NCBI GenBank assembly: GCA_949300345.1
Contig: CASGDR010000001.1
Location: 131,835-195,834 of the forward strand
Reading direction: 5' to 3'
DNA from: an uncultured bacterium
GTDB taxonomy: Bacteria; Bacillota_I; Bacilli_A; RFN20; CAG-826
Length of the DNA stretch: 64,000 nucleotides
In this document: piece after piece, positions 37,549-63,226 of the stretch
Position numbering within the stretch: position 1 is the first letter of the stretch
How the letters are laid out: every line of letters starts with the position of its first letter
The notes under the pieces: generated by a model
The model's input: the letters and a program-made list of their open reading frames with translations, nothing else
Database searches by the model: none
Told to the model about the DNA's origin: nothing
Translations under genes and position numbers: made by a program

Positions 37549-38265
37549 ATGAAACTATCCCGTTATAAAAAAGATAGTCCTTTCTCCTATTGTCTTGGGG
37601 CTTTCCCGAGCATGGAGCTTCTTTCAAGCCGTCCTGAGGCTTGCCTTTCTTTGCATATCCATTCCACCTTTTCCAACCAGGAGTATCTGGATAAGGCCCT
37701 GGATATTTGCAGTCGCCATCAAATCCCGGTCTATAGGGATGATGATAGGAACATCGCTAGGCTTAACGAGAAGGAAAACGTCTATGTGGTGGCCACCTTC
37801 AAGAAATATGAAGATAGCCTTGATAAGGAAGGAGACCACCTGCTGCTGGACAAGCCTTCCAACATGGGCAATCTAGGGACCATCATCCGCTCGTCCCTGG
37901 GCTTTAGTGTAAAAGACATCGCCCTCATATCCCCCTGCCCCGACTATTTCGATCCCAAGGTAGTCCGCTCCAGCATGGGTGCCCTGTTCAAGGTAAGGAT
38001 TTCCAAATTTGCTTCCTACAAGGAATATAAGGAAGGCTTCCCCGACCACATCGTCCATGCTTTCATGCTCGATGGGAAAAACATCCTTCAGGAATATAGC
38101 TTTCCTAAGGGCAAAAGGACTTTGGCTTTCGGAAACGAGGCCACGGGACTACCCCCTGAGTATTTGGATGAAAATTCCATCTACATCCGCCATAGCCATG
38201 ACATCGATTCACTCAACATAACCAATGCGGTCTCGATCGGGCTATACGAACTGAAGCGCAAATAA
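37549..38265 (+). CDS. SPOUT-superfamily TrmH/SpoU-type RNA 2'-O-methyltransferase
   Basis: 238 aa with motifs NMGNLGTIIRSS, FGNEATGLP and SLNITNAVSIGLYEL. Confidence 0.75.
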   Translation: MKLSRYKKDSPFSYCLGAFPSMELLSSRPEACLSLHIHSTFSNQEYLDKALDICSRHQIPVYRDDDRNIARLNEKENVYVVATFKKYEDSLDKEGDHLLLDKPSNMGNLGTIIRSSLGFSVKDIALISPCPDYFDPKVVRSSMGALFKVRISKFASYKEYKEGFPDHIVHAFMLDGKNILQEYSFPKGKRTLAFGNEATGLPPEYLDENSIYIRHSHDIDSLNITNAVSIGLYELKRK

Positions 38266-38395
38266 CCATAGCAAACAAAAACCCCGAACGGGTCGGGGGC
38301 GATTGCGGGTTTGCCTTCCTACTACGCTTTTGATACAGTGCACACCCCAAGGCAATTTACACGGCGTAAGGAAATAGTTTCAAACAATCCCCATT

Positions 38396-39004
38396 TTATC
38401 GGTATTTTCCGAAGAACTTCTCCTCTCCTGCCTTCCTTGCTTTGATGGCGTCCCTTTTATGCTTGAACCTGCCCAACAAATATGCCTTACGTTGGAACAT
38501 AATCTGAGCCACCCATAGCCCTCGCCGCCTATCGAAATGAACGCCCCTGACGCCGGACGTGTTGTTTCTGTTGAGCTTTCTGTCGGCCTTGGTTCCGCTC
38601 TTCATAGTCCCATCGACCAGTCCCCTATCTAGGTGAGGAAGGTTCGCCCTGTTCTCGTCGTTCTTGCATCCGCAGGAAACGGTCTCCCCGGTGGTAAGCT
38701 GTGAGGTCGCAACGTAGCAGACATTCCCGCAGTCGCACTGGCACCTCCAATAGTTCTTCCTGTTCTTGGCATAGGCAAACTCAAGGACGGTCAGCCTGCC
38801 GAATTTCTGGCCTGTGAGGTCTTTCCATCTGAATCTCCTGCAGCCACAGGATTTGACGTGGCCGGTATGGAGCTTGTTGATGTTGATCTCGATGATCTTT
38901 CCACAGACGCATCGGCATTTATAGATCTTGGTGGAATGATATTTCTTTCCCGTATCCTCAAGGACAGTCAGATAGCCATATTGCTTTCCGATTTCACTAT
39001 TCAT
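38396..39004 (-). CDS. AP2-domain DNA-binding protein with tandem CxxC zinc-ribbon repeats (phage/MGE-associated)
   Basis: 202 aa. It has two repeats of G(Y/R)LTVLE...C.C.CG and a C-terminal AP2-like SGVRGVHFDRRRGLWVAQI...LGRF. Confidence 0.6.
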   Translation of the reverse strand: MNSEIGKQYGYLTVLEDTGKKYHSTKIYKCRCVCGKIIEININKLHTGHVKSCGCRRFRWKDLTGQKFGRLTVLEFAYAKNRKNYWRCQCDCGNVCYVATSQLTTGETVSCGCKNDENRANLPHLDRGLVDGTMKSGTKADRKLNRNNTSGVRGVHFDRRRGLWVAQIMFQRKAYLLGRFKHKRDAIKARKAGEEKFFGKYR

Positions 39005-39017
39005 TCAGTCACCACAT

Positions 39018-39677
39018 CTATTGTCTTCTGGTCCACTTATATCTTGAATAGACCTCATTCACAGCTTCGATGTAGCAAATGAATGATGGATGATTATGGT
39101 CGTTCCTACTCAAATAGAGATTCTTTTTGTCAAGATAGCAGCCTCTTACTTCTTCCCATAAGTTATTGTCTTTAAGTGCTGCAGCCTTTTGTGATACTTC
39201 GCTTGAGTCAGGCACTTGATTCCAAAAATAATTGTCAGAGTCAGCAAACCCGGTTTTTTTGTGAATCAAGCGATACCAGTTACCATCATCATCCTTTGCA
39301 ATGATACAAACATCCATACTAAATTGGATGTCGGGATAATCATTAAAATGGCATGGATAAGTAGTTAAAGATGATGTTGAATCTTGGACGTCTCTGAGAT
39401 TTTGTTTTCTCATTACCTTGTTGAGGCACTTTCTTGCAGTTTCCTTTAGATATTGGCAGTCGTTGATATCCTCGCATTTCTGAATCAGAAGGTTGTAATC
39501 AAGATCGATGTCACCATTTTCATTTTGAGTGACCATGTTCCTTCCACCACTTCCAACTAATATAAATTGAGAACTAATGCCTTCCTCTTGTAATAAATGA
39601 ACCAACTCCTGCAAATCCTTAACACAGGAATTTTGAGCCCTTTTAAGAAAATTTTTGTCCTCTACAAAACGATACAT
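39018..39677 (-). CDS. Pol-beta-type nucleotidyltransferase-fold protein (GS...DxDxD), minimal NTase/SMODS-like
   Basis: 219 aa with LVGSGGRNMVTQNENGDIDLD and a downstream acidic MDVCII. The region is AT-rich. It lies 13 nt upstream of the AP2 gene. Confidence 0.55.
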   Translation of the reverse strand: MYRFVEDKNFLKRAQNSCVKDLQELVHLLQEEGISSQFILVGSGGRNMVTQNENGDIDLDYNLLIQKCEDINDCQYLKETARKCLNKVMRKQNLRDVQDSTSSLTTYPCHFNDYPDIQFSMDVCIIAKDDDGNWYRLIHKKTGFADSDNYFWNQVPDSSEVSQKAAALKDNNLWEEVRGCYLDKKNLYLSRNDHNHPSFICYIEAVNEVYSRYKWTRRQ

Positions 39678-39810
39678 ACTTAAAACCTCCTTAAGTGATA
39701 AATTTCCCCTAGCCGACCATCTGAAGTATGTATCTTTGCTTCAAATCATTAGATTTTATCATCGACATTCATCTTTGTCGATAATCTAGAATGTTTTCAT
39801 TCATTTTCAT

Positions 39811-39836
39811 AAAAAGACCGGGGATTTCACTCCCCA
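39811..39836 (-). terminator. Rho-independent terminator overlapping stop of serine recombinase
   Basis: On the minus strand, GGGGAGTGAAATCCCC is followed by GGTCTTTTTAT. Confidence 0.55.
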
Positions 39837-41407
39837 GCCTTGATGGTGGCCTCATAGCCGCAATAGAATCTGAACGTTATTGATTTGTCCCTATGGACGA
39901 TTGCCTTCTCCAGCGTGAAATTGAATATCGCCTCATCCCAGTCGAGCATTGCCTCGCCTTTTCGGAGCGTCGCAAGGAAGGCTTCGAGGTTCCCGGCTTT
40001 CAGCCTCTTCCCCTCCTTCTCGCCGATGAGTTTCTTGCATTCCTCTTCCTTCCTTTTGTATTCATCCTCGAGCTCTGCGTACTTTCTTCGCCAAACTGCT
40101 TGATCCTGCGGGCTTCTGGTGTTCATCTTCACCAGCAGGTTGAACTCCTTCGACATCTCCTCGAGTTCCTTTTTTAGCCCGCCGATGTCCGCATCGAGCT
40201 TGGAAGTGTCGGTAAGCAACGACATCGCGGCTTGGATGTCATCCATGACCGTCTCCTTGCCCGAAATCATCAGGTTGTAGGCTTTCATGAACCTTGCCTT
40301 TATGTCCTCTTCCTCCAGGTTCGGCGTATGGCATTTGTTCCTGAACTTGTCGTTGCACTGGATGATCTCCTTTTCATGGGGAGTCCCGGAATGCCACTTC
40401 TTCTTTCCGTAGTACCCGCCGCAGTCCTCGCATATCAGCCTGGCCGCAAAAGGGTTCTTGTACGAGTAGGAATAGCTAAGCTCCTTCCTTCTGTGGATTT
40501 CTATCTGCACCAGCTCCCAGTCCTCCTTCGGGATGATGGTCGGATGCGAATCATGAACATAGTATTGAGGGACCTCGCCTTCGTTCTTCTTCGTCCTGTG
40601 CTGGAGGAAGTCGACCACGAAGCTTTTCTGAAGGAGGGCGTCGCCTTTGTATTTCTCGTTCTGGAGTATGGAGAGGGCGGTCGTCTTCGTCCACTTCGTC
40701 TTCCCCTTCGGCGTCAGTATCCCGTCCTTCATCAAGTCGGAGCAGATCTTGCCGATGCTCTCGCCCTTGAGGAAGCGGTAGTAGATCCTCCTAACGGTTT
40801 CCGCCTCCTGCTCGTTTATCCTGATCTCGCCGTTCTCGCCCTTTTCGTACCCGAGGAAGGCTTTGTAAGGCATGCTTACCTTCCCGTCGGCGAATCTCTT
40901 TCTCTGCCCCCAAGTGACGTTTTGGGAGATTGACCTGCTTTCCTCCTGAGCCAAGCTCGACATGATGGTGATGAGGAGCTCGCCCTTGGAGTCGAAGGTG
41001 TTGATGTTCTCCTTCTCGAAATAGCACTCGACGTTGTGCTCCTTGAGCTTCCTTATGTTCACCAAGCTATCGACGGTGTTGCGGGCGAATCTGGATATGG
41101 ACTTGGTGATTATCAAATCGATCTTCCCGCCGAGGGCATCGTCGATCATCCTTTTGAAGCCTTCTCTCCTTTTGGTGTTGGTCCCGCTGATGCCTTCGTC
41201 CGTGTAGACGCCCACGAGTTCCCAATCGGGCCTTCTTTTGATGTAATTGGTGTAATAGTCCACTTGGGCCTCATAGGAGGTCTGCTGCTCCTCTTGGTCT
41301 GTCGAGACGCGGGCGTAGGCGGCAACCTTCCTCTTCCTTAAGCTGCCTTGGGGAAGCCTGGTCAATGGATTTATGGTTGGCTCAATCTTGGTTATCGTTC
41401 TTGCCAT
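39827..41407 (-). CDS. Large serine recombinase (resolvase/recombinase/zinc-ribbon/coiled-coil), CcrB-sized
   Basis: 526 to 536 aa. N-terminal resolvase domain AAYARVSTDQ...Y with a catalytic Ser, a recombinase domain, a Cys zinc ribbon and a C-terminal coiled coil. The ORF extends to 41437. Start placed at MARTITK (41407). Confidence 0.8.
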   Translation of the reverse strand: MARTITKIEPTINPLTRLPQGSLRKRKVAAYARVSTDQEEQQTSYEAQVDYYTNYIKRRPDWELVGVYTDEGISGTNTKRREGFKRMIDDALGGKIDLIITKSISRFARNTVDSLVNIRKLKEHNVECYFEKENINTFDSKGELLITIMSSLAQEESRSISQNVTWGQRKRFADGKVSMPYKAFLGYEKGENGEIRINEQEAETVRRIYYRFLKGESIGKICSDLMKDGILTPKGKTKWTKTTALSILQNEKYKGDALLQKSFVVDFLQHRTKKNEGEVPQYYVHDSHPTIIPKEDWELVQIEIHRRKELSYSYSYKNPFAARLICEDCGGYYGKKKWHSGTPHEKEIIQCNDKFRNKCHTPNLEEEDIKARFMKAYNLMISGKETVMDDIQAAMSLLTDTSKLDADIGGLKKELEEMSKEFNLLVKMNTRSPQDQAVWRRKYAELEDEYKRKEEECKKLIGEKEGKRLKAGNLEAFLATLRKGEAMLDWDEAIFNFTLEKAIVHRDKSITFRFYCGYEATIKAGE

Positions 41408-42692
41408 ATAGCCTTTCCAGCTCCCTTCTTCTGGCATCTTCTTTCATCTCAGGTGTCCACGAATCCTTTCTCGACTTGAATTCGAAGTGCAGCGTCTTGA
41501 TGCTTCCGTCCATGAAGACGAAATCGACGTCCTTGCTTTCGTGGACGACTATCCTGTCTATCTTCTCCTTGAACGCCTTCTCGTCGAACTCCTTTATGCC
41601 CAACGCTTGGTTCGTCAGCTCGTAAAGGGTGTCTTCCCTAAGGGCGAGCGTCTGGCGGCATGCCGACTTCGAGAGGACGCTCATCGTCCCGCACGCCCAG
41701 AAGGTCCTGTATTTCGAATTCTTCCTCACGTAGTTCTTCCCGCATGTGGCGCACTTCAACTTCTTGGTGAAGGGGCTCAGGTTGTTGTTCGGTCCATAGC
41801 GGACCGGCCTTCTTTTCTCCATCAGCTCCTGCGCCCTGAGGAATTCCTCTTTGCCGACTATTGCATCGTGGTCCTCCGCGACCTTGTAAAGTGAGTATTT
41901 CCCAATATTCGCCTTGCAGTGCTCGTTTATGCCGCAAGAATACCTCCCCAGGACCAGCTCCCCTGTATAGGTCGGGTTCCTGAGTATCCATCTAACGGTG
42001 CTCTCCCTCCAAATGGATCCCATGGGCGAGGGGATCCCGTCCCCGTTGAGCCTCCTGGCAATCTTCTGGGTGCCGACGCCCTGTTTGGCGTACTCATCGA
42101 ATATCCTCCTTACTACCTTCGCTTCCTCCTCCTTGATTTCGTATCTTCCGTTCACCACCTTGTATCCGAAGAAATCGTGGAGCCCCCAGACCTTGCCTTC
42201 CTCGAAGAACTTGCCTACTTTCCACCTTACGTTGTTGGACATCGACACGACCTCCTCCTCGGCAAAACCTGCCAATAGGGAAAGCATCAGTTCCCCGTCC
42301 ACGCTCATCGAATGCATGTTCTGCTCCTCGAAGTAGACGTCGACGTTGAGCTTTTTTAGAAGCCTCGTCGTCTCCAAAAGCAGCATGGTGTTCCTCGCGA
42401 ACCTCGATATCGATTTGGTGACGATCATGTCGATTCTGCCCTGCTTGCAGTCCTCGATCATTCGATTGAATTCCGGTCTGTTGGCCTTGGTCCCGCTTAT
42501 CCCCTCGTCGGCGTAGATCCCGGCGAACATCCAGTCGGGGTTGCTTGATATGTAGTCCTGGTAATAGGACACCTGCGCCACAAATGAATGGAGGGTGGCG
42601 TCCTTGCTTACGGAGACCCTGCAATAGGCGGCAACCTTCTTCTTGCTCGGAAGGGTTGGCTTGGCTTTGATCTTCACTATTTGCCTATCCAT
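41382..42692 (-). CDS. Large serine recombinase (CcrA-sized), overlapping the downstream recombinase gene
   Basis: 436 aa with a resolvase N-terminus AAYCRVSVSKD, a recombinase domain and a zinc ribbon CATCGK. Confidence 0.8.
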   Translation of the reverse strand: MDRQIVKIKAKPTLPSKKKVAAYCRVSVSKDATLHSFVAQVSYYQDYISSNPDWMFAGIYADEGISGTKANRPEFNRMIEDCKQGRIDMIVTKSISRFARNTMLLLETTRLLKKLNVDVYFEEQNMHSMSVDGELMLSLLAGFAEEEVVSMSNNVRWKVGKFFEEGKVWGLHDFFGYKVVNGRYEIKEEEAKVVRRIFDEYAKQGVGTQKIARRLNGDGIPSPMGSIWRESTVRWILRNPTYTGELVLGRYSCGINEHCKANIGKYSLYKVAEDHDAIVGKEEFLRAQELMEKRRPVRYGPNNNLSPFTKKLKCATCGKNYVRKNSKYRTFWACGTMSVLSKSACRQTLALREDTLYELTNQALGIKEFDEKAFKEKIDRIVVHESKDVDFVFMDGSIKTLHFEFKSRKDSWTPEMKEDARRRELERLYGKNDNQD

Positions 42693-42732
42693 TTTGTAAG
42701 CCTCCTTTCATTCCATACATCGCTCTTTTCGC

Positions 42733-42918
42733 CTAGGTATTCAACCCATATAGGCGATAAACGCTGCCTGTTTTGATATGGTGCCTCTTGGCGATCTCCT
42801 TCTCGGCGACGATGTACTCCCTTTCGTCCAAAAGACCCCTTTTCTGCATGGTTTTCAACACGAAAACGGCGGTGAGGTAGCTTTGGGCGTCAACCTGGTA
42901 TTCCGCCAAATCACGCAT
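42733..42918 (-). CDS. Small hypothetical protein (approximately 62 aa) in recombinase leader
   Basis: Start at the internal Met MRDLAEYQVD. The upstream part of ORF 42733..43161 overlaps the next gene and has an R/S-rich, junk-like composition. Confidence 0.35.
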   Translation of the reverse strand: MRDLAEYQVDAQSYLTAVFVLKTMQKRGLLDEREYIVAEKEIAKRHHIKTGSVYRLYGLNT

Positions 42919-43210
42919 CGCCACCACCGCCTTTTTCCGCCTTGGCCTCCTGCTTTCTCCTTTCGTTCCACCAGGAATATTTGCATCCATGGGAGCAGAA
43001 GACTTGGTTAATGTGCCTCCTGTCGAGGACGAACGGCTTCCCGCATCTTCTGCAGTATCGGACCAGCCCCGCCGTATCCCTGTCCATGACGTTCCTCTTG
43101 CAGAAGGAAGCCACTGTGTTCTTTGAAATCCCCAAAAGGAAGGCGATCCTCTTGTAGCCAAGCCCCGCTTTGCGGTATTCGACGATCTTCCTCTCGTTTT
43201 CTCTTTCCAT
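42911..43210 (-). CDS. Sigma-70 region-4-like HTH protein with C-terminal zinc ribbon
   Basis: About 100 aa with the HTH YKRIAFLLGISKNTVASFCKRN followed by CRRCGKPF...CSHGC. Confidence 0.5.
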   Translation of the reverse strand: MERENERKIVEYRKAGLGYKRIAFLLGISKNTVASFCKRNVMDRDTAGLVRYCRRCGKPFVLDRRHINQVFCSHGCKYSWWNERRKQEAKAEKGGGGDA

Positions 43211-43239
43211 GCGAATCACCTCAACATACTGGAGAAAAC

Positions 43240-43668
43240 TCACCCTCTTTGATGGGGGTCGCCGAACAGCTTCACGTATTTTTTCTTCAGCTGCTCCTTC
43301 GTTTCGTGGACGGACTTGAAATCGACGTTCTCTATCCTGGCGACTTCCCTTTCGCTATGCCCTTCCTCGAAAAGCCTGTACCTTCTTAGCTGAACCGGCG
43401 TCAAAGAGGACAGGAACAGCTCGTATTTCCTCTGCTGTTCTTCCCTCTCCTCCTTCTTCAAAGCCGCCTCCAATGGGTCCGGGTCATTGGATTTGAACGT
43501 CTCGCCCTCGTAATCGGCATCGTCAAGGCTGAACGCCACATGGTATTTGTATCTTTGGTTGCTGGCGTCCTCTTCCCTGTCCAAAGAGACCATGAGTTCG
43601 CCGATTCGGTCGTCAACGTCTACGATATCGACGACGCGACCATCCAAGTCTTTTAACTTGATCTTCAT
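43240..43668 (-). CDS. Sigma-70 region-4/LuxR-like HTH regulatory protein
   Basis: About 143 aa from MKIKLKDLDG, with a C-terminal HTH LTPVQLRRYRLFEEGHSEREVARIENV. The ORF upstream extension is P/G-rich and unlikely to be coding. Confidence 0.45.
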   Translation of the reverse strand: MKIKLKDLDGRVVDIVDVDDRIGELMVSLDREEDASNQRYKYHVAFSLDDADYEGETFKSNDPDPLEAALKKEEREEQQRKYELFLSSLTPVQLRRYRLFEEGHSEREVARIENVDFKSVHETKEQLKKKYVKLFGDPHQRG

Positions 43669-44071
43669 TGAAAAAACCTCCATTCGGTTGGGAAATGGAG
43701 GCTTTCCTTCCGGTCCCTCTGGGCACGCTAAAGAGGCGGGCAACGGGAATGGAATGAGGCTTCCATTTCGTGTTGCACCTGGCCCCTTACGAGGGTTCGG
43801 ATGCTTCGACAATGCGCCGGCGTAAGTGCCATGGATCCGACGGCTTCCAGAGCCGGTTTCCCGGCTGGCAAGAACAGGTTATCTTCTGGAGTCTGCCATC
43901 AAAATTCCGCGGACACACGCAAGCACACGCAAATCCACACGCAGCCAAAAAGCTGATGAACAAGAGAGGGAAATCGAAGCAAAAAGCCGCACGCATTCGG
44001 CATAGTTTTTTGGCCTATGTCTTTTGCGTGTAGTTGCAAAAGCCGTGCGCTATAATGGTTAATGGTAAGAA

Positions 44072-45532
44072 ATGATGAGATTCAACCTGGACTTTCTGAC
44101 GGTATTCACCCTGGTAAAGCAATCCCTGACGAACGACTTGTCGGAGAACGAGATTTACAGGCGCCTGATATGCCTCGGCAACGAAAATCTGGACGGAAAG
44201 AACGACCCCCATCGTCACATAACAGGTGAAACGCAGATCAATGGGTCCAGAAACTCGTCCATCATAGGCAAATCTTCGATTGAGGTAATGGCCCGCTCAT
44301 ATGACTCGCTTTTCAGCGATTATATGAGCGTCTCCACGCGGAAGCGGATGGTATCCGTTCTCAAGGAAATACTGAAATCGTGCAACTGGCCCGACCCAGA
44401 ATTGGAAATAGGTGAAGGCAGCGGATTTACGCTCGAATCGGTCATCAACGGGAAGAGCTTTTGCTTCCCCTACCTCCTTGCGGCTTTGGTTAAATTCACG
44501 GTGCCAAGGGAAAACCCGCACAGGAAAGACTTCAAGGAATACCGCGTCACTGTCGTCGACTGCTACAACAGCGCGCCGGATGAGAACCTGGATTTGGTTC
44601 CGATCGACCTTGCGCTCCCCCGCGAAAAGGACACTTCGAGAATCGACGGAGCCGAATTCCGGAGGTTCTTCACGGAGGTGAATTCCGAGAAGTTTCCGGA
44701 GCAGTTCAAAGGCGCGGGCGACGTGAAGATTTTTCGTCTGAACATCAGGAACTCCCGGTTCGACTACGAAGGCCTCTCGGGATTCCTCGAGGAGAACATC
44801 GAGCATTATGTGATGAGCTCGCTCGAGGAAAAGTCCTACTATGACGAGCAGAGGACAAAGCATCTCACGCACGACGCAATAAAGAGGTTCGCGGCCTCCG
44901 CTTCCGGCAAAGACCTCCGCGAAGTTTATTCGCGGCTCATGCTTTACGTCTTCATGGAAGGCGGCCTCGGCGCGCCGAAGATATTCAACGCCGTCGAGAT
45001 AAAGGACAAGAACATTAGGAGCGACGGTGTTTACTACCTGCGAAAAGGGGTTATTTCCGACAAGCCTATGCTCATCCTCGGCGCATCGCAAACCTTCCCG
45101 ACGCTGGATGAGGCCATGGAAAACGGGCTTGCCCAAATCGACGTGATTTCGAGAGAGCAGGACAAGATGCTGTCTTTCATAAACCCCGCGTTCCTACGGA
45201 TGAGATTCGAGCAAGATGATCTCTCCTACATAGTCGACCGTCTCATAAAAGCGGAAGGAATTCTACAGAACGACGCGGCGTTCGGAGTGTTCCTCTCCTA
45301 TTCGCTCGATGAGTCGAACGATGGCAACTTATCCTCTAACGAGTTCAGGCAGAAAGTAGAGGAAAGAATGGAAAGGGACATAGCCGATGCGGTTCCCATG
45401 ATTTACGCGAAGATCAAGGAGCACGGGCTGCAAAACTATGGTTTCTTCGTGTTCGTCCTTCCCCTAACGAACGTGGAGACTGACGCCGAGAAGGTAATAC
45501 GCGGATTCGCCGGAGGAGAAATGAATGGCTAA
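44072..45532 (+). CDS. Unknown 486 aa protein, first gene of helicase/nuclease module (candidate HamA/DUF1837-like, unverified)
   Basis: No signal peptide and no recognised canonical motif. There is a possible restriction-endonuclease-like E...ExK segment, LYVFMEGG...NAVEIKDK. It overlaps the downstream helicase gene by 8 nt. Confidence 0.5.
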   Translation: MMRFNLDFLTVFTLVKQSLTNDLSENEIYRRLICLGNENLDGKNDPHRHITGETQINGSRNSSIIGKSSIEVMARSYDSLFSDYMSVSTRKRMVSVLKEILKSCNWPDPELEIGEGSGFTLESVINGKSFCFPYLLAALVKFTVPRENPHRKDFKEYRVTVVDCYNSAPDENLDLVPIDLALPREKDTSRIDGAEFRRFFTEVNSEKFPEQFKGAGDVKIFRLNIRNSRFDYEGLSGFLEENIEHYVMSSLEEKSYYDEQRTKHLTHDAIKRFAASASGKDLREVYSRLMLYVFMEGGLGAPKIFNAVEIKDKNIRSDGVYYLRKGVISDKPMLILGASQTFPTLDEAMENGLAQIDVISREQDKMLSFINPAFLRMRFEQDDLSYIVDRLIKAEGILQNDAAFGVFLSYSLDESNDGNLSSNEFRQKVEERMERDIADAVPMIYAKIKEHGLQNYGFFVFVLPLTNVETDAEKVIRGFAGGEMNG

Positions 45533-48110
45533 CCGCGTCCAAGAGATTCTTTTCCCTCGGCTAGAAGCAAGCCCCGTACTGAAACTACTTTTCTCTAAGC
45601 TTCTACAGGCCTACACAAGACTTAATTTCGGGATGGCACCGCCATCATTTGCCGAAAAGGAGATTAACCAGCTCATATCGTTCGCAAGCCTGCTCTCCAA
45701 ATCGAACGATTCCGGCCAAAAGGTCATATCCGAGCAAATCGTGGCACTGCTCGGAAAGCTCTACCCCGCCTCGGAAAGCATCAGGAAAGCCAAGGCGGAA
45801 GTGCTTTCCTCATGCACAAACTACGTCGGGATGAAGGTGGAAAAAATGGAGGGAAGGAGCGACGACGTATTCCAGGAAATCAGCTCGGAAATCCAAATGG
45901 AATCGCTGAAGATTCCGTTTCAGGACGGCAAGTTCTTCATAGACGACCAAAAGGAGATATTCGACAGCTTCGAGAAATACCAATTCGTCAGCTACTCCGC
46001 CCCCACGTCGCTTGGGAAATCGTTCGTAATGAGGATCTACCTCAAATACAAGGTTGCCAGCGGATACCGAGGAAACTTCGCGATAATCGTCCCAACAAAG
46101 GCCCTCATCAACGAGATGAGGAACAGCGTCGTCGAAGAGGACCTGAAGGACCTTCTCCGGAAGATGCACTACAGGGAGGTTTCGTCGGTCAACGAGGTAT
46201 TCGTCACCGAAGACAAGGAATCGAAGTTCATCTTCATAGTGACACCGGAGAGGCTCCACTATCTCCTCAACAGCACCGACATAGCCATCGACTGCTGCTT
46301 CGTCGACGAGTCATACAAGATATCGGAGCCCGACTCAAGGAGCCTCTACTACTATCAGGCAATAAACCAGCTCCTTGCTCGGAACCCTAAGACGAAAATA
46401 TTCTTCTCGTCCCCGAACATACCGAACCCCGAAGTCTATCTCGAAACGATAAAGGCGCCCGGGACAAGATACAGGAAGGCGACCGGGTACTCGCCCGTCA
46501 GCCAGATCAAGTACCTCATCTCGCTGAAGGAAAAAGACCGGCCAATCAAGGTGTTCAACGACCTCACCCAGGTGTTGGAGGACACGGGCATGACGAACCC
46601 GTCCACGAACATCAACGACATAATATCCACGCTGAAGACGAAGGGCGGGAACATCGTCTATTGCTCAGGGAAGGACAAGACCGTTGAGCTTGCCCTGCAA
46701 TATGCCAATTTCCTGCCCGCCTTCCAGCCCAGCACGCCTGAGGAAAGGGAAAATCAGGAAAAGCTTGACGCCCTGGCTAAGAGCATCGAGCAGGACATCC
46801 ACGAGGATTACTACCTCGCCGCTCTCATGCGAAAGGGCGTCGCCTACCACGTCGGCTACCTGCCGAATTCGCTCAGGAACAGCATAGAGAAGGCGTTCAA
46901 GACCGGGCTCATAAAGACCATCTTCTGCACGAGCACCCTAATGGAGGGGGTCAACCTCCCCGCGGACAACCTCTTCGTGACGAGCACGAGGAATGGCTCA
47001 GAGGCCATGTCTCCGACTGCGTTCAAAAACCTCCTCGGTAGGATTGGAAGGATCAATTACAGTCTTTTCGGGAACGTCTACCTCTTAGTCATCCCTCGCT
47101 ATGCCAATGCCGAAAAGTACGAGGAGCTGCTCACGTCAAAGGTCGAACCACAAAAACTGTCGCTCGATAAGATAGTCACGGACGGGTCGATCGTCGACCA
47201 CATCAGCGACGATGCATATTTCTTCGGACGCGAGGACGAGGACCAGACGAAAAGGATAGCGGCCAACATCTACATAAACGACGTTAAGAATGGCACGGAA
47301 TCACTCATCAGGGAAAGGGTCGACTCAAAAAGCGAGGAGACATTGGTTGACAAGGCTATAAGGAAAATCGAATTGCTGGAAACATCGGAAAGCATAGACA
47401 TCTCACCGGACCAGCACGTGAGCCTCAAAAAGTACATAGAAAACGGCGGCCATTACCCCGATCCCGTGAACGGCCGGTTTGAACACAGCGACGTCTGGCG
47501 CTTCCTCAACGAGCTTTCGGACATTTATAAATGGGACAAGTACGAGTTCGAGACACTTAAGAACGGCAATTCGAACTCGTATTTCGCGACCGTCCTCTCC
47601 CAGTGGATGAGCGGACTCAAAGTAAAGGAAATCGTCGACCGATCGATAGAGAGCAAGAAAAAGAACCCATATGACGCGATCTTCGACAGAAAGCTCCACA
47701 TGAAGGTCGATTACATCGGCACGGTCGAGCAAAACAACATAATCATCAACGACACGCTCAGGACGATTGAGCAAACAATCCTTTTCACCATAGCGAACTA
47801 CTTCAGAGAGTTTTCGAGGGAATACAAGAACTTCCACCACCTGGAATATTTCGACAACGACTGGTACGAGTACGTAGAGTTTGGAACCAGCAACCCAATA
47901 ACCATCGCACTTCAAAGGAACGGATACATCCGCGAAACGGCCAAATGGATACACGAAAACGATTCAAAGTACCATCTGATCGATCAAACCCGCCGATGCA
48001 AATTCGCTCCATTCACCTTAGACCTCGACAACCTTTTGAAATGCGGCGAGCAGAAAGTAATTGAAGAGACGCTCGTCATCAAACTAAATGTCCCAGAGCT
48101 TTTTAGATAG
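45525..48110 (+). CDS. SF2 (Ski2/DExH-like) helicase, candidate HamB-like
   Basis: 861 aa with motif I SAPTSLGKSF, motif II CFVDESYK (DESY in place of DExH), a motif VI-like LLGRIGRIN, and FCTSTLMEGVNLP. Confidence 0.65.
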   Translation: MANRVQEILFPRLEASPVLKLLFSKLLQAYTRLNFGMAPPSFAEKEINQLISFASLLSKSNDSGQKVISEQIVALLGKLYPASESIRKAKAEVLSSCTNYVGMKVEKMEGRSDDVFQEISSEIQMESLKIPFQDGKFFIDDQKEIFDSFEKYQFVSYSAPTSLGKSFVMRIYLKYKVASGYRGNFAIIVPTKALINEMRNSVVEEDLKDLLRKMHYREVSSVNEVFVTEDKESKFIFIVTPERLHYLLNSTDIAIDCCFVDESYKISEPDSRSLYYYQAINQLLARNPKTKIFFSSPNIPNPEVYLETIKAPGTRYRKATGYSPVSQIKYLISLKEKDRPIKVFNDLTQVLEDTGMTNPSTNINDIISTLKTKGGNIVYCSGKDKTVELALQYANFLPAFQPSTPEERENQEKLDALAKSIEQDIHEDYYLAALMRKGVAYHVGYLPNSLRNSIEKAFKTGLIKTIFCTSTLMEGVNLPADNLFVTSTRNGSEAMSPTAFKNLLGRIGRINYSLFGNVYLLVIPRYANAEKYEELLTSKVEPQKLSLDKIVTDGSIVDHISDDAYFFGREDEDQTKRIAANIYINDVKNGTESLIRERVDSKSEETLVDKAIRKIELLETSESIDISPDQHVSLKKYIENGGHYPDPVNGRFEHSDVWRFLNELSDIYKWDKYEFETLKNGNSNSYFATVLSQWMSGLKVKEIVDRSIESKKKNPYDAIFDRKLHMKVDYIGTVEQNNIIINDTLRTIEQTILFTIANYFREFSREYKNFHHLEYFDNDWYEYVEFGTSNPITIALQRNGYIRETAKWIHENDSKYHLIDQTRRCKFAPFTLDLDNLLKCGEQKVIEETLVIKLNVPELFR

Positions 48111-48119
48111 GAGGATACC

Positions 48120-50063
48120 GTGGAAACTCCCGATAAAATCATTCAATCATGCGATCCTTTGGATCTTCTTTCCAAACTTTCATATCTCAAGTGGCTAATG
48201 GCGACAGACGCTTTTTCGGATAGAGACAAGCAGCCATTCACCTTTTTGGAAGTCAAATACGCACTGCATTACGTCATGTCCTATCTGCTGTCCCATAAGC
48301 TTGGCGAAGCAGCTAATCAATCCATACAGTATGAAACAATTTCCACCTTAATCTGCGCGCTTGCCCAAGAAGAAATAAATAGAAAGTTTAACGAGGAAGC
48401 GACACTGGATAAGCTGTCAGGAAAACTTCAATACACTCAGAAAGACTCAGGCGAATTGCTTCCTTTATTCTACTCCGTTCCATTTCGCCACATTTTAGAA
48501 GGGGAAGATGACATAATCTCAGCAAAATACGGATGCAATTCGAATGACATACTCAATGATTTCGCGACATTGGTGGGCGCTTTCAATAACTCAGTAAGAG
48601 CCAAAGGAATGAAAGTTTTCGATTTCGTCAATAGGTTCAACGACTACTGCAACTCCTCCGCCTTGGCAATCCAAAAAAACATGAAAAGTTACGGCTTGTT
48701 CAAAACAATGTCAGGCCGAATAGGCCAATTCGCAGAAGACGAATTTGATCACGGTTACCCAATTTCGCTAATTAAGAAATTCAGGAAACTCTTCATCAGA
48801 GTTGACGATATTTTGTACTGCCCAGATTTGGAGCTTGTCCCAAATCTAATCGTCCGCTGCGTAGAAAGAGCGATGCAGCAAGACAAAAGGCAAAATCCAG
48901 AATGGGATCTGCGGATGAAGGAAAGAACAGAGAAACTCGTGAATGGCGCCCTTTCGCACTATTTCAAAGGAGGGACATACCATGCGAACTCAGAGTTTGG
49001 CCAGAAAGAAAAAGGGGAAAGCGATGGCCTCTTTGAATTCTTGGGACATCTTTTCATAATTGAAGTTAAAGCCGGAAAGCTTAGTCCCGATCCTGTCGAG
49101 TCAAATAACACCACTGTTCATCAATCCTACAAGGCAACGATAGGAAAAGGGACCAAGCAATGTGACAAGGCAGAAAATCATATTCTCGAACATGGCGGCA
49201 AATTCAAAGAAGACGGCCACGAATTCCGAGTGAATTACGATATTGAGCACATCATCAAACTCGTCATTTCATTTGAAGACCTTTCCGCTGTTTTGCCGGA
49301 TGAGAATATTCAAACCCCTAATCACACAATTCTCATGACTTATTTTGATTTGCTTATAGTGCTTGACTATATAAACGAACCAATTCTTTCCCTCAAATAT
49401 TTCTTGGAGAGAAGAAAGGCATTGGAGCATTGCTGGGATATTTCAGACGAAATGATTTATCTGGGTTTATTTAGCGACGACATGAATTTTACGTATCGCT
49501 TAAATTCCCAACCCTTTTCTTCTTCGGCAGACAACTCCACAAATTTCGTCCTTGATCCGCATTCGTTCACGCACGAAATAGAGATGCACTACACGCAACC
49601 AGAACGATATCCCAAACCAAAAATACATTTGAGTGAATTTCAAAGGCTGGTATTGGCGGCACTCAATGGAAAGGATAGCATCTCGTCTAAATGGGCAATG
49701 CCACTGCTTATGCTTCCTACTCAATTCGGAGATAAATTGATGTTGCTTTTCCAAAGGAATAATTGTCACAGAGGTTTTGCCCCACAAGTAGGCATGGCTG
49801 GGTTCGCAAACGGAAAACATATCGCCGTTATGGTGTCAAAAAAGCACATAGGAGAACAAAGATATATCTATTATGCCATTGCGAATAGGTTCTTCAGAAA
49901 GCATGGAGAAGCGAAAGAAATCGTAAGCCTGATTGTTGACGGCCAGCGTTCCCACCTCGAGGAAATTGACCATTCGCGAAAGGAATTAAACTATCAAAAG
50001 ACCCTAGATGCGCTTCAACAAATAGAAGCCAAATTTGGGTTTAGACAAAAGATCTACAAATAA
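48120..50063 (+). CDS. Large PD-(D/E)xK nuclease-fold protein of unknown family (AT-rich)
   Basis: 647 aa. A central motif ESDGLFEFLGHLFIIEVKAGK gives D...E-V-K. It starts 9 nt after the helicase stop. Its GC is markedly lower than that of its neighbours. Confidence 0.55.
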   Translation: METPDKIIQSCDPLDLLSKLSYLKWLMATDAFSDRDKQPFTFLEVKYALHYVMSYLLSHKLGEAANQSIQYETISTLICALAQEEINRKFNEEATLDKLSGKLQYTQKDSGELLPLFYSVPFRHILEGEDDIISAKYGCNSNDILNDFATLVGAFNNSVRAKGMKVFDFVNRFNDYCNSSALAIQKNMKSYGLFKTMSGRIGQFAEDEFDHGYPISLIKKFRKLFIRVDDILYCPDLELVPNLIVRCVERAMQQDKRQNPEWDLRMKERTEKLVNGALSHYFKGGTYHANSEFGQKEKGESDGLFEFLGHLFIIEVKAGKLSPDPVESNNTTVHQSYKATIGKGTKQCDKAENHILEHGGKFKEDGHEFRVNYDIEHIIKLVISFEDLSAVLPDENIQTPNHTILMTYFDLLIVLDYINEPILSLKYFLERRKALEHCWDISDEMIYLGLFSDDMNFTYRLNSQPFSSSADNSTNFVLDPHSFTHEIEMHYTQPERYPKPKIHLSEFQRLVLAALNGKDSISSKWAMPLLMLPTQFGDKLMLLFQRNNCHRGFAPQVGMAGFANGKHIAVMVSKKHIGEQRYIYYAIANRFFRKHGEAKEIVSLIVDGQRSHLEEIDHSRKELNYQKTLDALQQIEAKFGFRQKIYK

Positions 50064-50111
50064 TTTTTACGTTCATGGTAACTGTTAAACGCAGAATGAC
50101 AGCGTTACTTA

Positions 50112-52166
50112 TCAATCATTCAACTGCTTTTCAAACGACTGCTTGATGATGTCCATGACGTCGTCCAACTGGCCCAAGTTATCCAGAATAACTTCGACGT
50201 TTCCATTCCCCCACCTTCCAACGCCGGTAACGTCTTTGCATATTCCCTTTGGATCGTTCACCTCGGAGAAATCCATGTTGATGGCGATTCTCAGCCTGCT
50301 TTCCTGAAAGACGATGTCCGTGAAATTCGTGTCCAGCTTATAGGCAACGTAGAGTTTTTTGAACTCCCTTCGCACCGAGGAAGACAAGTTCATAATCCTG
50401 GTGTCAAGTTTCTCGAAAAACATCTTAGTCAGTAAATTCGGCCTGTAGGAATCGAGACTGTACTTCGGCTCGTTTCCCTTATCCTGCACGTAGGGAGCGA
50501 GTTGCTCCGATGCAAGGTTTGGATATTGCCATATTTCAAGAGCCTTGGCTGCCAAAAGTTTGGCCCTTTCCTCGATCTTGTCTCCGTTCCAAGTGCTCTG
50601 AAGAACAATGTACTCATTAAGCCTACAAGCCGTCTGGCGGAATCCGCCTTTCATGACCATTTTCTCCATGAAAGGCTTGTCGCTCATCTCTGAGTTGTAT
50701 CCGGTTAGGGTGAGATTGCCGATGGTATGTAGATATTTCGAATGGGCTGCTTTCCAATCGCTTCCTAGCATGGCCTTCCAGTCGTCGTTTAGCCGATCGT
50801 TTTGGGGCATGATATGCTCGATCGTCATCGAAAGCACGTCCACCGGGGACTTGTTGTCGTAGTTTTCAAGGCGGTCAAGGATGTAGTTCCTGTTCCGCAT
50901 GTTGTAGATATCCCTGCTAACAAATGCCTTTTCGAATTCCTCGTCGTTAGGGAACTCCTTATACCCCTCACGGGTGAGGAAGAACGCCTTCAAGGAGACA
51001 AGGTAATCGTCCTTTTTTATTTCGTTTTCCAAGGTGGCGAATGTCTTGTTGAGCGAGTTTGTGGCAAGATCGCATATGCTTCTTCTCAGCACGTAGCTTA
51101 TACATAGACGGATGATTTCGCCCGTATCGGAATTGCTTACAAGGCCGGAAGCGTTGTCACGGAGGACTGCCATTAGAAATGGGTTGGCAACGCCCATGTT
51201 TAGTTCCTTAACCTCACGGAATAACTCGGCCAAATTCTGATCCTTGCTTCTGGCAAAGATGATGTCTGTGTATATCTTTCCCATCCGGTAGATGTCATTG
51301 CAAAGCTCTTCGCTGCTTGCGAAAGGACAGTTGATCCGCCACGATTTGAACTCGTCATACACGTTCGCCTTGTTCGGGATTCTGTGGTTATACATCGTCA
51401 AGTAGTCCCTGAAGAACGAATCCATGTTGGAGTCCTGGCTTTCGTGCCCGAAGAGTTCCTCGAATGGGCGCCACACCTTGGAATAAAGGCTTTCCTGAGC
51501 TTCCTTCGTCATCCCCATGAGGACGAAGTTTCTAATCAAGTCAGACTGCGAGAGAGCCTTGCCAGTGGAATTGAGACTTTCAAAGATGGCTTGCGGATCA
51601 TCACGGCCCCTTTCGAGCGTGATGATGACTATTTGCAGCTTCCCCGTTGCCTCAAACAGAGAATCGGTAGAGATTTCGTTTTTTGCAATCTTGCTTTTAA
51701 AGAACTCGTAGGCATTGAGCAGCTTCGACTTGGTTCCTTCTGCTATGGGCTTAGATTCGACGAGGGAAACGAGGACGTCCTTGTCCTCCTCCGTCAGCAG
51801 TAGCTTGTACTTCTGCTCGCCGCTTTCATACTGGTTCATGAGAAACGATGTGTTGATCTTCTGCTTTTCGAGATCGCCGTCTATGGAATCTCGGAGCGCG
51901 ATAAGGACGAGGGCCAAGGTCGTGAGGCGCTGCTGCCCGTCGATGACCATGTATTTTTGGACACCAGTTGGAGCCGTTTTCTCCGCAATGCAGACTATTG
52001 AACCCAAGAAGTGACTGTCCCTGTTTTCCTTCTGCATTTCCACGATATCGTCCCAAAGGCGGCCGTACTGGGATTCATCCCAGCTGTATAGTCTCTGGTA
52101 AATTGGGACTATGTACTGTTTCAGCCCGTTCAGCAATTCGAATATGTTCCCCTTGTTAGCGTCCAT
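50112..52166 (-). CDS. DUF262 (ParB/GmrS-like) + DUF1524 (HNH/His-Me, GmrD-like) fusion protein; GmrSD-family defense/type IV restriction-like
   Basis: 684 aa with N-terminal IYQRLYSW...IDGQQRLTTL and C-terminal TIEHIMPQN. It overlaps the hsdR stop by 11 nt. Confidence 0.75.
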   Translation of the reverse strand: MDANKGNIFELLNGLKQYIVPIYQRLYSWDESQYGRLWDDIVEMQKENRDSHFLGSIVCIAEKTAPTGVQKYMVIDGQQRLTTLALVLIALRDSIDGDLEKQKINTSFLMNQYESGEQKYKLLLTEEDKDVLVSLVESKPIAEGTKSKLLNAYEFFKSKIAKNEISTDSLFEATGKLQIVIITLERGRDDPQAIFESLNSTGKALSQSDLIRNFVLMGMTKEAQESLYSKVWRPFEELFGHESQDSNMDSFFRDYLTMYNHRIPNKANVYDEFKSWRINCPFASSEELCNDIYRMGKIYTDIIFARSKDQNLAELFREVKELNMGVANPFLMAVLRDNASGLVSNSDTGEIIRLCISYVLRRSICDLATNSLNKTFATLENEIKKDDYLVSLKAFFLTREGYKEFPNDEEFEKAFVSRDIYNMRNRNYILDRLENYDNKSPVDVLSMTIEHIMPQNDRLNDDWKAMLGSDWKAAHSKYLHTIGNLTLTGYNSEMSDKPFMEKMVMKGGFRQTACRLNEYIVLQSTWNGDKIEERAKLLAAKALEIWQYPNLASEQLAPYVQDKGNEPKYSLDSYRPNLLTKMFFEKLDTRIMNLSSSVRREFKKLYVAYKLDTNFTDIVFQESRLRIAINMDFSEVNDPKGICKDVTGVGRWGNGNVEVILDNLGQLDDVMDIIKQSFEKQLND

Positions 52167-55100: not shown

Positions 55101-55236
55101 ATTCCTCCAATTCTCCCTCGTAAAGAGGCGATTCGTAGTCCCTATCCGGAAGGTCGGGGCCATAAACATGCCTGTAGCCGAGGCCTTCGAGAAGCTGGAC
55201 TATAGAATTCTCGTATGTATTTTCAGTGAATGGCAT
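52156..55236 (-). CDS. hsdR: Type I restriction enzyme R subunit
   Basis: 1026 aa with an N-terminal HsdR_N region, SF2 motifs GSGKSLSM and SDEAHRSQ, and a C-terminal helical domain. Confidence 0.9.
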   Translation of the reverse strand: MPFTENTYENSIVQLLEGLGYRHVYGPDLPDRDYESPLYEGELEESLRRINPSLKEEAIQDALNKLHHFENADLIQKNKLFMDYLQNGLPVRYRENGESKSDMCYLVDYDHPERNSFVVANQWTFVERSNKRPDILIFLNGLPVVLMELKSPSREETNASEAYSQIRNYIHEIPSMFIYNALCVMSDLLLSKAGTITSDEERFMEWKSKDGTYTTDCVATFDVFFEGIFPKERLLDIIRNFICFSNEGIKTFKIMAAYHQYFAVNKAIKSTERAVATDGKGGVFWHTQGSGKSLSMVFYAHLLQQHLDSPTIVVLTDRNDLDDQLFSQFAKCSEFLRQKPIQAESREHLVKLLDERKANGIFFTTIEKFTESAKPLSTRKNIVVMSDEAHRSQYGLTEKVRIKKDENGNDVAVTTIGYARKVRDALPNATYIGFTGTPVFSKDHNTKEIFGDYIDIYDMTQSVADGATRPVYYESRVIKLKLDEETIGKIDDLYDKLEEDSDPSVIEASKRKLGQLEAVLGNPKTINSLVTDIIGHYENNREHLLTGKAMIVAYSRPIAMEIYKEILRQRPTWTEKVAVVMTSDNRDPEWWRDIIGNKARKQELATRFKDNSSPLKIAIVVDMWLTGFDIPSLATMYVYKPMVGHNLMQAIARVNRVFEDKEGGLVVDYIGIANALKQAMREYTVRDQKNFGDMDVSKEAYPKFQEKLQVCKDLFHGFDWAAFNSGDDLVKAQTITGAVNFMVAPELAETKKDFLKQGLLCHQALSLCSSLATAEERHEASFFESVRVLLNRLESAGGPKKYSLSEVNDKVSELLKQSVISEGVINLFEDREVSFSLFNPDFLAEISKMKEKNIAVELLKKLISEQIRIFRKTNLVQSVKFSEIIQRIVTKYLNGMLTNEEVMHELLDLAEQIRKATEQGKELGLTTEEKAFYDALTQPAAVMDFYTNDELVAMTKELTELLRKNETIDWQKREGARSHMKMLVKRLLKKYKYPPEGEEREKAIQTVLEQCELWTDNVMGGESDGR

Positions 55237-55253
55237 AGCAGCCCTCCTTTCAT

Positions 55254-55281
55254 CCGTTTAAACGATAATTTATCGAAGCAG
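55254..55281 (+). repeat. hsdS recombination repeat R1 (forward; encodes NDNLSKQ)
   Basis: ccgtttaaacgataatttatcgaagcag. It is a 22 bp perfect inverted match to 55971..55992 and a 22 bp direct match to 57546..57567. Confidence 0.8.
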
Positions 55282-55344
55282 ATATCTACACTTATCGCTC
55301 ATGAATTCCCATATACAGCCGATGAATTCATAAGTGGTTGGCAT

Positions 55345-55968: not shown

Positions 55969-55992
55969 GACGATAAATTATCGTTTAAACGG
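55969..55992 (-). repeat. hsdS recombination repeat R2 (inverted copy)
   Basis: gacgataaattatcgtttaaacgg is the reverse complement of R1. Confidence 0.8.
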
Positions 55993-56066
55993 ACGTAGCT
56001 CCCCCGCGGCGGGAGGCCGAGAGAAACAGCCGCGGAAAGCGCTTCTCCAGTAATAAGGAGGAGAAC

Positions 56067-57053: not shown

Positions 57054-57066
57054 GGAGGAAAAAGAC

Positions 57067-60168: not shown

Positions 60169-60371
60169 TTCTCCTCTGTTATGGGTGCGATATCCTTATC
60201 CTTCATCAACTGTTCTAACTTGGCCTTAGCGATTTTTGTGGGCTCAAAATGCCCATTTTCCCACCGATTGACTGTTTGGAAGGTTACATCCAAAAGGTCA
60301 GCTAATCCTTGTTGAGAAAGTCCTAGTTCAGTGCGTATTTTTACTATCGTTTTTTTATAATCGACCCTCAT
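60165..60371 (-). CDS. XRE-family (Cro/cI-type) HTH transcriptional regulator
   Basis: 68 aa with the HTH LGLSQQGLADLLDVTFQTVNRWENG. The stop overlaps the hsdM start by 4 nt. Confidence 0.7.
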   Translation of the reverse strand: MRVDYKKTIVKIRTELGLSQQGLADLLDVTFQTVNRWENGHFEPTKIAKAKLEQLMKDKDIAPITEEK

Positions 60372-60507
60372 TTTTGCCTCCGCCTTATAACAGTCTATAT
60401 CATTTTATAACACTTTATATGTTCATGCCTAGGAAAACATCATCTTTCCCTCAATAAAAAAAGAGCCACCCAACCCCGTCAGGAGTCAGATGGCTTCGCG
60501 TCATTGA

Positions 60508-62167: not shown

Positions 62168-62175
62168 AGGCCCTC

Positions 62176-63212: not shown

Positions 63213-63226
63213 TTCTCATTCCTCCT

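Follow-up and report, generated by a model that had tools for sequence, protein, structure and literature searches.

The DNA stretch analysed here (the window; 64,000 nucleotides of contig CASGDR010000001.1, assembly GCA_949300345.1, from an uncultured bacterium) contains two tandem genes for large serine recombinases (LSRs), designated LSR-A and LSR-B, close to one end of a mobile element. The favoured reading, which is given a probability of about 0.72, is that these recombinases form the integrase module of a temperate, siphovirus-type and defence-carrying prophage located at the CCA end of a tRNA-Thr(GGU) gene, and that they act as one hetero-oligomeric integrase. Prophages with tandem LSRs are already known, and this element is a further example of the kind. 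A preliminary description of the window had proposed an integrative element of the staphylococcal cassette chromosome (SCC) type, with a ccrA/ccrB-like gene pair and defence cargo, inserted next to a SPOUT methyltransferase gene.

The recombinase gene pair and its conservation

The two recombinase genes lie on the minus strand, and both open reading frames (ORFs) are intact:

41382..42692, minus strand: LSR-A, 436 amino acids (aa), with Resolvase, Recombinase and zinc (Zn)-ribbon domains and a C-terminal beta-sheet
39827..41407, minus strand: LSR-B, 526 aa, with catalytic and recombinase domains, a Zn ribbon, two long helices predicted to form a hairpin (coiled coil) and a C-terminal beta-sheet

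For LSR-B, an alternative start at the first ATG (41437) would give a protein of 536 aa. The start at 41407 appears more likely because an AAAGGA Shine-Dalgarno motif lies 3 nt upstream of it, the N-termini of homologues agree with it and three of four public gene calls adopt it. The overlap between the two genes is then 26 nt, against 56 nt with the longer LSR-B call.

Both proteins are matched by the Pfam families Resolvase (1e-27 to 1e-33), Recombinase (1e-21 to 1e-25) and Zn_ribbon_recom (∼1e-6, exceeding the Pfam gathering score), all far beyond chance, and by the PHROG 95 ‘integrase’ family, at 384 bits for LSR-A and 462 bits for LSR-B. Each has the domain set of a large serine recombinase, namely a Resolvase domain with the nucleophilic serine, a Recombinase domain and a Zn ribbon; on this point, and on the tandem overlapping arrangement of the two genes, the preliminary description was accurate. 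The catalytic motifs RVS, DEG..GT and KSISRFARNT are at least 95% conserved in A and B across 62 homologous pairs, RVS being strictly invariant in an alignment of 54 LSR-A sequences, and the C-terminal tail of LSR-A bears a conserved SR..SWT.EM motif.

Structural models point to one major difference between the two proteins. The AlphaFold2 (AF2) model of LSR-A, with a predicted local distance difference test (pLDDT) score of 82, comprises the catalytic, recombinase and Zn-ribbon domains and a three-stranded C-terminal sheet, and the helical hairpin is absent from it; Foldseek aligns this model with the integrase complexes of SPβ, φC31 and Bxb1 at E values of 1e-14 to 1e-18. In the model of LSR-B, helices 366-427 and 433-482 (∼50-60 residues) stand ahead of an equivalent C-terminal sheet, with confidence for residues 400-470 only. 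The two proteins share ∼40% identity across their first 340 residues, and a MAFFT alignment of A with B does not place the coiled-coil gap cleanly; matching the C-terminal beta-strands of both models suggests a deletion of the coiled coil in LSR-A relative to LSR-B. In other serine integrases, the coiled-coil hairpin controls synapsis and direction.

The pair is strongly conserved. A scan of IMG/VR with LSR-B gave at least 598 relatives, from 600 pattern matches listed, and the locus comparisons reported here cover the best 80 of them, among which 71 hold intact pairs. An LSR-A homologue lies directly upstream of LSR-B on the same strand in 79 of the 80 loci, the exception being cut by a contig end. 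Sizes are 424-440 aa for A and 523-534 aa for B in 60 of the 71 intact pairs, and the genes, taken from their longest-ORF starts, overlap by 1-26 nt in 51 pairs and by 35-109 nt in 18. The pairwise-distance matrices of A and B are correlated (r = 0.91). Relatives of the A type also occur in 224 GenBank phage records, including gut ‘NatCom’ phages of Candidatus (Ca.) Heliusvirales, where they are labelled ‘DNA invertase’.

Some relatives carry more than two recombinase genes. A further serine-recombinase-like gene is located ∼1.8 kb downstream of LSR-B in L019-L023, L028 and L074, additional ones lie near the pair in L041/L068 (14928-17515) and L079 (7353-8693), and L079 has two A-type genes in tandem ahead of B. 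The cassette therefore ranges from doublets to triplets.

Insertion at the CCA end of a tRNA-Thr gene

The site without the insert is present in a conspecific strain (L090/L091, a 294-kb scaffold), where a SpoU gene is followed by 48 bp, tRNA-Thr(GGU) on the opposite strand, rimO, galT and galK. The flank in L090 is 98.96% identical to the window over 10.7 kb and collinear with it up to position 38313, and a second assembly (L092) has the same empty site. At the far junction, found in L093, whose sample also yielded a contig identical to the window, rimO, tRNA-Thr and CCA are followed directly by the replication arm of the phage, which encodes a DUF2800 nuclease, AAA_24, a helicase, a primase, RusA and a ParB-methylase; the tRNA-Thr gene is intact there. 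A joint of the attP type is seen in L004, which is 100% identical to window positions 52034..38312 (13.7 kb) and then continues into a variant of the replication arm. The comparison with genomes lacking the insert, proposed in the preliminary description as a check, defined the attachment (att) sites, whose parts in the window are as follows:

38266..38311: attL B arm, chromosomal; intergenic DNA after SpoU with the hairpin CCCCGA-ACGGG-TCGGGG
38312..38313: crossover core TG, complement of the terminal CA in the encoded CCA end of tRNA-Thr(GGU)
38314..38353: attL P′ arm, phage; TGATACA at 38331-38337, 17 nt from the core, with the GGGGTGTGCAC repeat just beyond

The four sites compare as follows, the core being set off by spaces:

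attB (L090): ...GCGGGTT TG GTGCCCCGCC...
attL (window): ...GCGGGTT TG CCTTCCTACT...
attR (L093): ...TTCAAATA TG GTGCCCCGCC...
attP (L004): ...(A/T)A TG CCTTCCTACT...

Long direct repeats are not present at these sites: the four-way comparison leaves two shared bases, as expected for serine recombinases. Because TG alone is common to attB, attL, attR and attP, and the adjacent bases differ between attB and attP, the exchange is assigned to the 2-bp staggered cut of a serine recombinase; because TG complements the CA of the encoded CCA, the target is the 3′ end of tRNA-Thr and the SPOUT gene is a mere neighbour. At the level of sequence, the junctions show that the prophage was inserted by a 2-bp exchange at the CA of the tRNA CCA end. 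The preliminary description had the island starting right after the SPOUT gene; the distance from the SpoU stop codon to the core and the foreign DNA is indeed about 46-48 bp, but the crossover itself falls in the tRNA-Thr CCA end.

The phage site has the form TGTATCA-N17-TG-N17-TGATACA. The P′ arm of attL is identical in L004, and the other arm, like the attP of L011 and L103, carries the mirror motif at equal distance from the core; in L011, the closest relative, the free attP reads TGTATCA-N17-CA-N17-TGATACA. The arms of attB are asymmetric, with the tRNA acceptor and T-arm on one side and arbitrary intergenic DNA on the other. Repeats of the types GGGGTGTGCA(C) and GGGTGTCG, some beside ACGGCGT, recur on both phage arms within ∼250 bp of attP (window 38338-38395; L004 13760-13960; L093 11530-11700; L012 12255-12350, with five tandem copies). 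These repeats may be putative sites for an accessory or regulatory protein, and they are unusual for the att sites of serine integrases.

Insertion at other tRNA genes in relatives

In a sub-group of the relatives, the LSR-proximal arm reads ...TGTATCAAAA(T)TGGTGTCCAGTTA, and in 13 of the 14 distinct flanks TGG and the 3′ half of a tRNA come next; the fourteenth flank is an attP. ARAGORN identifies the tRNAs at these flanks as Leu-GAG, Leu-CAA, Met-CAT, Arg-CCG, Pro-CGG and Pro-GGG. The motif-N17-TG spacing matches that of the phage in the window. The polarity of the core is inverted in these relatives, and their phages therefore lie the opposite way relative to the tRNA. Different tRNA targets are occupied by integrase pairs of 98.6-100% identity, and no SPOUT gene is involved at the tRNA insertion sites of these relatives. 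Their tRNA arms share a G at +1 and GGA.T(T/C)GAACC at +13 to +23, in the T-arm, and this stretch partly matches the attP motif in the same register.

These observations raise the idea that LSR-A and LSR-B represent a widespread, overlooked two-subunit serine integrase, which would recognize a generic tRNA 3′ end (T-arm and CCA), cross over in CA and place the coiled-coil-less subunit on the non-conserved half of attB. This proposal is a tentative one, with the odds somewhat against it. If it is true, near-identical enzymes could use many different tRNA genes, helping phages to lysogenize many hosts. In the literature searched, no description was found of tandem LSRs aimed at tRNA ends; the nearest items are Φ1207.3, the triplets of integrative and conjugative elements (ICEs), and, among tycheposons and similar cryptic elements, the few with an LSR gene. 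Insertion at tRNA CCA ends is possibly an under-described property. The tyrosine integrases that target tRNA genes, such as that of phage mv4 at the 3′ end of tRNA-Ser, likewise use the conserved 3′ part of the tRNA as attB and keep the tRNA intact, but they belong to an unrelated enzyme family with another chemistry and rebuild the tRNA end from longer identity blocks, whereas only 2 bp are shared here.

A tailed prophage with defence cargo

The prophage starts at window position 38314 and extends past position 64000, with a length of at least 45 kb. From the integrase cassette outwards it contains:

44072..48110, plus strand: Hachiman HamA/HamB (PADLOC; HamA 6.7e-54, HamB 1.8e-248)
48120..50063, plus strand: 647-aa ORF beginning 10 nt past hamB
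50112..52166, minus strand: GmrSD-type type IV restriction enzyme with a DUF5655 tail (Pfam GmrSD_N, GmrSD_C and DUF5655; PADLOC)
52156..60371, minus strand: type I restriction-modification (R-M) system, with hsdR at 52156-55236 and hsdM at 58654-60168 (Pfam and PADLOC)
56067-57053, plus strand: tyrosine recombinase within the type I R-M region
57067-58664: two hsdS genes, part of the type I R-M system
60165-60371: Xre-type helix-turn-helix (HTH) gene beside the type I R-M system
60508..61211, minus strand: lysis genes, with a holin at 60508-60900 (PHROG 13712, 5e-30) and an XhlA-like protein at 60897-61211 (PHROG 1863)
61204..64000, minus strand: tail-fibre and late genes, with PHROG tail and minor tail protein matches for 62361-63212

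Contigs that match the window at 100% identity up to position 64000, L006 among them, run on into genes for Dit, tape measure, head-tail connector, HK97 capsid, protease and portal. Virion, lysis and replication modules lie between two att junctions, and relatives have an empty site, as is characteristic of a temperate tailed prophage.

The defence genes form a block of ∼16 kb. In L012, the stretch that separates the tail-fibre, XhlA and holin genes from the cassette of small ORFs and LSRs measures ∼0.8 kb and holds no defence genes; the block is therefore regarded as cargo that occupies a slot flanked by the lysis genes and the integrase cassette. Hachiman is absent from related phages with the same flanking modules. 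The 647-aa ORF has no match in Pfam, PADLOC or NCBIfam, and could be an additional Hachiman-associated gene or a separate defence gene.

That related phages lack the defence block, and that base composition is patchy, with patches of 39-43% GC, could also be explained by nested elements, in which the LSR pair belongs to a separate defence island inserted in or beside an unrelated prophage and mobilizes only ∼38.3 to 60.4 kb. This is very improbable: related phages without defence cargo have this cassette at the same location behind the lysis genes, the far att junction is found beyond the phage replication genes, beside the tRNA, and the attP-type joint connects the LSR arm with the replication arm.

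Several further observations concern this region. The hsdS region (55282-58664) is a shufflon seen in several configurations: compared with the window, L006 has segment 57542-58159 in the opposite orientation, position 57545 is joined to 55281 in L007, which removes the tyrosine recombinase gene (56067-57053) and part of hsdS, and one public scaffold ends at ∼55357 within the region. Ahead of XhlA, at 61204-61956, an ORF of 229-250 aa carries a GS...DxD motif like that of nucleotidyltransferases, and L012 and L078 have conserved counterparts of it. Membership of the prophage in Ca. Heliusvirales was considered and rejected, the major capsid protein having no NatCom relative. Since phages of Ca. 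Heliusvirales nevertheless share the LSR pair, the LSR cassette is taken to move between phage lineages.

Relation to Ccr recombinases and other known systems

The comparison with ccrA and ccrB has a real basis in gene layout, as both systems consist of adjacent, co-oriented short (∼440 aa) and long (∼540 aa) LSRs, but neither protein reaches the cut-off of the models for CcrA, CcrB or CcrC. Assignment was judged from hidden Markov model (HMM) scores calibrated against known phage LSRs, with the NCBIfam equivalog cut-offs of 700 for CcrA (NF047344), 900 for CcrB (NF047343) and 900 for CcrC (NF047347). All scores are far under the cut-off:

LSR-A: CcrB 132.7 bits, CcrA 77.7 bits, CcrC 80.0 bits
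LSR-B: CcrB 136.4 bits, CcrA 60.1 bits, CcrC 79.7 bits

The phage LSRs of Φ1207.3 (orf56/orf57) and NatCom_11393 obtain 121-139 bits on the CcrB model, so the Ccr likeness is one of family level only. Because both LSRs prefer CcrB over CcrA, the pair does not map onto the A and B of SCC.

The strongest case for an SCC-like, non-phage cassette, in which a CcrAB-family pair would direct defence genes to the 3′ end of a SPOUT gene in the manner of SCCmec and rlmH, is the coincidence of a short/long tandem LSR pair, a neighbouring SPOUT-clan gene and defence cargo in the element. SCC elements can indeed carry defence genes (PMC11470126), and a mobile element with defence cargo was correctly anticipated in the preliminary description, the cargo found being HamA/HamB, GmrSD and a type I R-M system. 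The carrier, the target and the protein family all mismatch, however, and the SCC interpretation fails for this reason; it is scarcely credible. SCC is a cassette without virion genes, whereas this element, a tailed prophage, includes genes for holin, tail, tape measure, capsid, protease and portal. SCC inserts in the 3′ coding end of rlmH (orfX), whereas the core here is in the intergenic CCA end of tRNA-Thr, 47-48 bp past the SpoU stop codon. The adjacent SPOUT gene, which had been seen as the counterpart of rlmH, encodes a SpoU/TrmH protein (PF00588) and not RlmH, and the relatives use other tRNAs with no SPOUT gene nearby. Finally, Ccr equivalog scores of 60-136 bits, against cut-offs of 700-900, are those of phage LSRs, and both proteins are nearer to CcrB. 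The preliminary description had itself named clustering with phage integrases rather than with Ccr as an outcome that would contradict it, and this is what is found: PHROG 95 at 384-462 bits, homology with orf56/orf57 of Φ1207.3, and Ccr scores at the level of phage LSRs.

The closest known system is the tandem-LSR module of the Streptococcus pyogenes prophage Φ1207.3, also present in Φ10394.4 and Javan phages. The gene order is the same and each LSR is homologous position by position, LSR-B to orf57 (47% identity, 461 bits) and LSR-A to orf56 (36% identity, 220 bits), both over the full length. In Φ1207.3 the serine recombinase genes (412 and 521 aa) also overlap, and the pair lies at the right end of a siphovirus prophage, past the lysis cassette and a small ORF, with a moron gene following. 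The paper on this phage described two overlapping resolvase genes after the lysis cassette, suggested their cooperation and drew the parallel with SCCmec (PMC4260502). Phages of this type differ in inserting into protein-coding genes, comEC and rum, rather than at a tRNA CCA end (PMC4260502), and in cargo, which is macrolide efflux and a toxin there and anti-phage defence here.

Other systems are more distant. The serine integrase triplets of Streptococcus ICEs are also co-oriented multi-gene LSR modules at an element end, cluster by position and generate 2-8 bp repeats, but they comprise three genes, have conjugative carriers and target mutT, traG and hsdM (PMC4701971).

The single-subunit serine integrases (φC31, Bxb1, A118/LI, TP901-1, SPβ SprA) share the three-domain fold, the 2-bp crossover, a short quasi-palindromic attP and the lack of long direct repeats; here there are two paralogous subunits, one of them modelled without the coiled-coil motif. 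In the system described here, the distal motif on the tRNA arm of attB (T.GA..C, +17 to +23) is in the same register as in attP; for the A118/LI integrase, the attB motif is shifted inward.

One integrase or two independent recombinases

CcrA and CcrB are reported to collaborate on an asymmetric target (PMC4363357). By analogy with them, we infer that LSR-A and LSR-B would be co-translated from their overlapping genes and form one hetero-oligomeric integrase. In such an enzyme, LSR-B would supply the coiled coil for synapsis and control of direction while both subunits keep their catalytic residues; the presence of two different subunits may allow the reading of a strongly asymmetric attB, and one of the small proteins encoded upstream probably sets directionality.

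The main rival holds that the recombinases are independent, LSR-B being the integrase and LSR-A an enzyme for excision or resolution, a DNA invertase, or an integrase for alternative sites. It draws on the fact that A and B are ∼40% identical paralogues, each with complete catalytic and DNA-binding domains, on the ‘DNA invertase’ label of A-type proteins in GenBank and PHROG, on the fairly symmetric arms of attP, and on the paper on Heliusvirales, which reads the cluster as a means of host-range switching (PMC11283538). Set against these points, the pairing is obligate (79/80 loci), with overlapping genes and conserved sizes. LSR-A has the recombinase and Zn-ribbon domains of an integrase instead of the small HTH domain of Hin/Gin invertases, and its model shows no coiled coil, an element on which stand-alone serine integrases depend for synapsis and control of direction. 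There is no invertible segment linked to the pair, and the only shufflon of the element has its own tyrosine recombinase. Independent action of the two proteins is considered unlikely.

The reading of the pair as one hetero-oligomeric integrase of a tRNA-inserted prophage meets with several objections. The heteromer is argued only from analogy, the linkage of the genes and their co-variation; plain co-inheritance would also make A and B co-vary, and a homodimer could read attP, given its fairly symmetric arms. The LSR-B model was built from a single sequence, with pLDDT 76-90 for residues 400-470 only and poor values elsewhere. L004, which provides attP, is a variant phage whose left arm is shorter by ∼1.2 kb and differs in five core-adjacent bases (L004 13724-14444 versus L093 11486-13423), the missing part comprising two small ORFs and the N-terminal ∼280 residues of the DUF2800 nuclease; its attP-type joint could instead be the junction between tandem prophages. 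Excision of the prophage is a prediction from sequence. In addition, no endolysin was recognized beside holin and XhlA (60371-61956), where NatCom_11393 and Φ1207.3 have one, and the prophage may therefore be defective.

Small genes of the cassette and chromosomal neighbours

Three small ORFs precede the recombinase genes, and two further ORFs separate LSR-B from the att site:

43240..43668, minus strand: 142-aa small protein, PHROG 11138 (function unknown), 3e-13
42911..43210, minus strand: 99-aa HTH and Cys-motif protein, PHROG 2308 (function unknown), 3e-19
42733..42918, minus strand: 61-aa conserved small protein directly upstream of LSR-A, with no family match
39018..39677, minus strand: 219-aa nucleotidyltransferase-fold protein with a GS...DxD motif, located between LSR-B and the att site where GC content is 39%
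38396..39004, minus strand: 202-aa Cys-rich protein at the LSR-proximal prophage end, with a weak AP2 match only

The conserved order of the cassette, which follows the lysis genes at the end of the prophage, is the 99-aa HTH protein, the 61-aa protein, LSR-A and LSR-B. Three HTH and zinc-ribbon regulators had been expected upstream of the recombinases. Three ORFs are present, and the 99-aa one has CxxC...CxxxC cysteines and HTH matches that are all under the Pfam gathering scores, but a Pfam search gave no domain match for the 61-aa and 142-aa ORFs. The 99-aa ORF lies upstream of LSR-A in 68 of the 80 related loci and is a candidate regulator or directionality factor. A small ORF occupies the position of the 61-aa protein in 45 of the 71 related loci, the alignable ones having the pattern Y..a..ak.M..G.I...(D/E)y...E/D...KY.I...S.YR, and this protein is a candidate accessory or directionality factor. 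Homologues of the 142-aa ORF are confined, among the related loci compared, to L010 and L011.

On the other side of the pair, a homologue of the 202-aa protein (64% identity) is found in L012 at the same place after LSR-B. The 219-aa ORF has a weak PADLOC oligonucleotide-cyclase match (9e-5), is absent from related phage loci and looks like a moron at the prophage end. An ADP-ribosyltransferase toxin occupies the equivalent moron position in Φ1207.3.

Outside the element, the chromosomal neighbour is the following gene:

37549..38265, plus strand: SpoU/TrmH-family RNA methyltransferase of the SPOUT clan (PF00588, 2.3e-26)

The SpoU gene at the empty site in L090 is 99% identical to the window copy. 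Window positions 1-37500 are ordinary chromosome, with rimP, nusA-like, ylxR, infB and rbfA genes, DegV genes and a nitroreductase gene; among named relatives, uncultured ‘Bacilli bacterium’ and Erysipelotrichaceae metagenome-assembled genomes (MAGs) come nearest, at ∼55% protein identity. Scanning GTDB species-representative genomes with the SpoU protein revealed no close relative, only a 34% match in a Prolixibacteraceae MAG; an exact look-up of this protein returned the lysogen contig as sole match, and one of a 238-aa tail ORF returned no record. The host is a rarely sampled lineage of Bacilli.

Biological significance

The analysis sets right an attractive but mistaken interpretation: with a SPOUT gene that is a bystander and an element that is a phage, there is no case here of SCC outside staphylococci. 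What is found instead is a temperate phage whose cargo slot, flanked by the lysis genes and the integrase cassette, holds ∼16 kb of defence systems. Comparison with relatives also brings to light a two-gene serine integrase that is conserved across hundreds of gut viral contigs; some of its members are located at the CCA ends of assorted tRNA genes. If insertion at such assorted ends is confirmed, it would be of interest for the host range of phages and, because every genome offers tRNA ends as landing sites, for the building of integrase tools.

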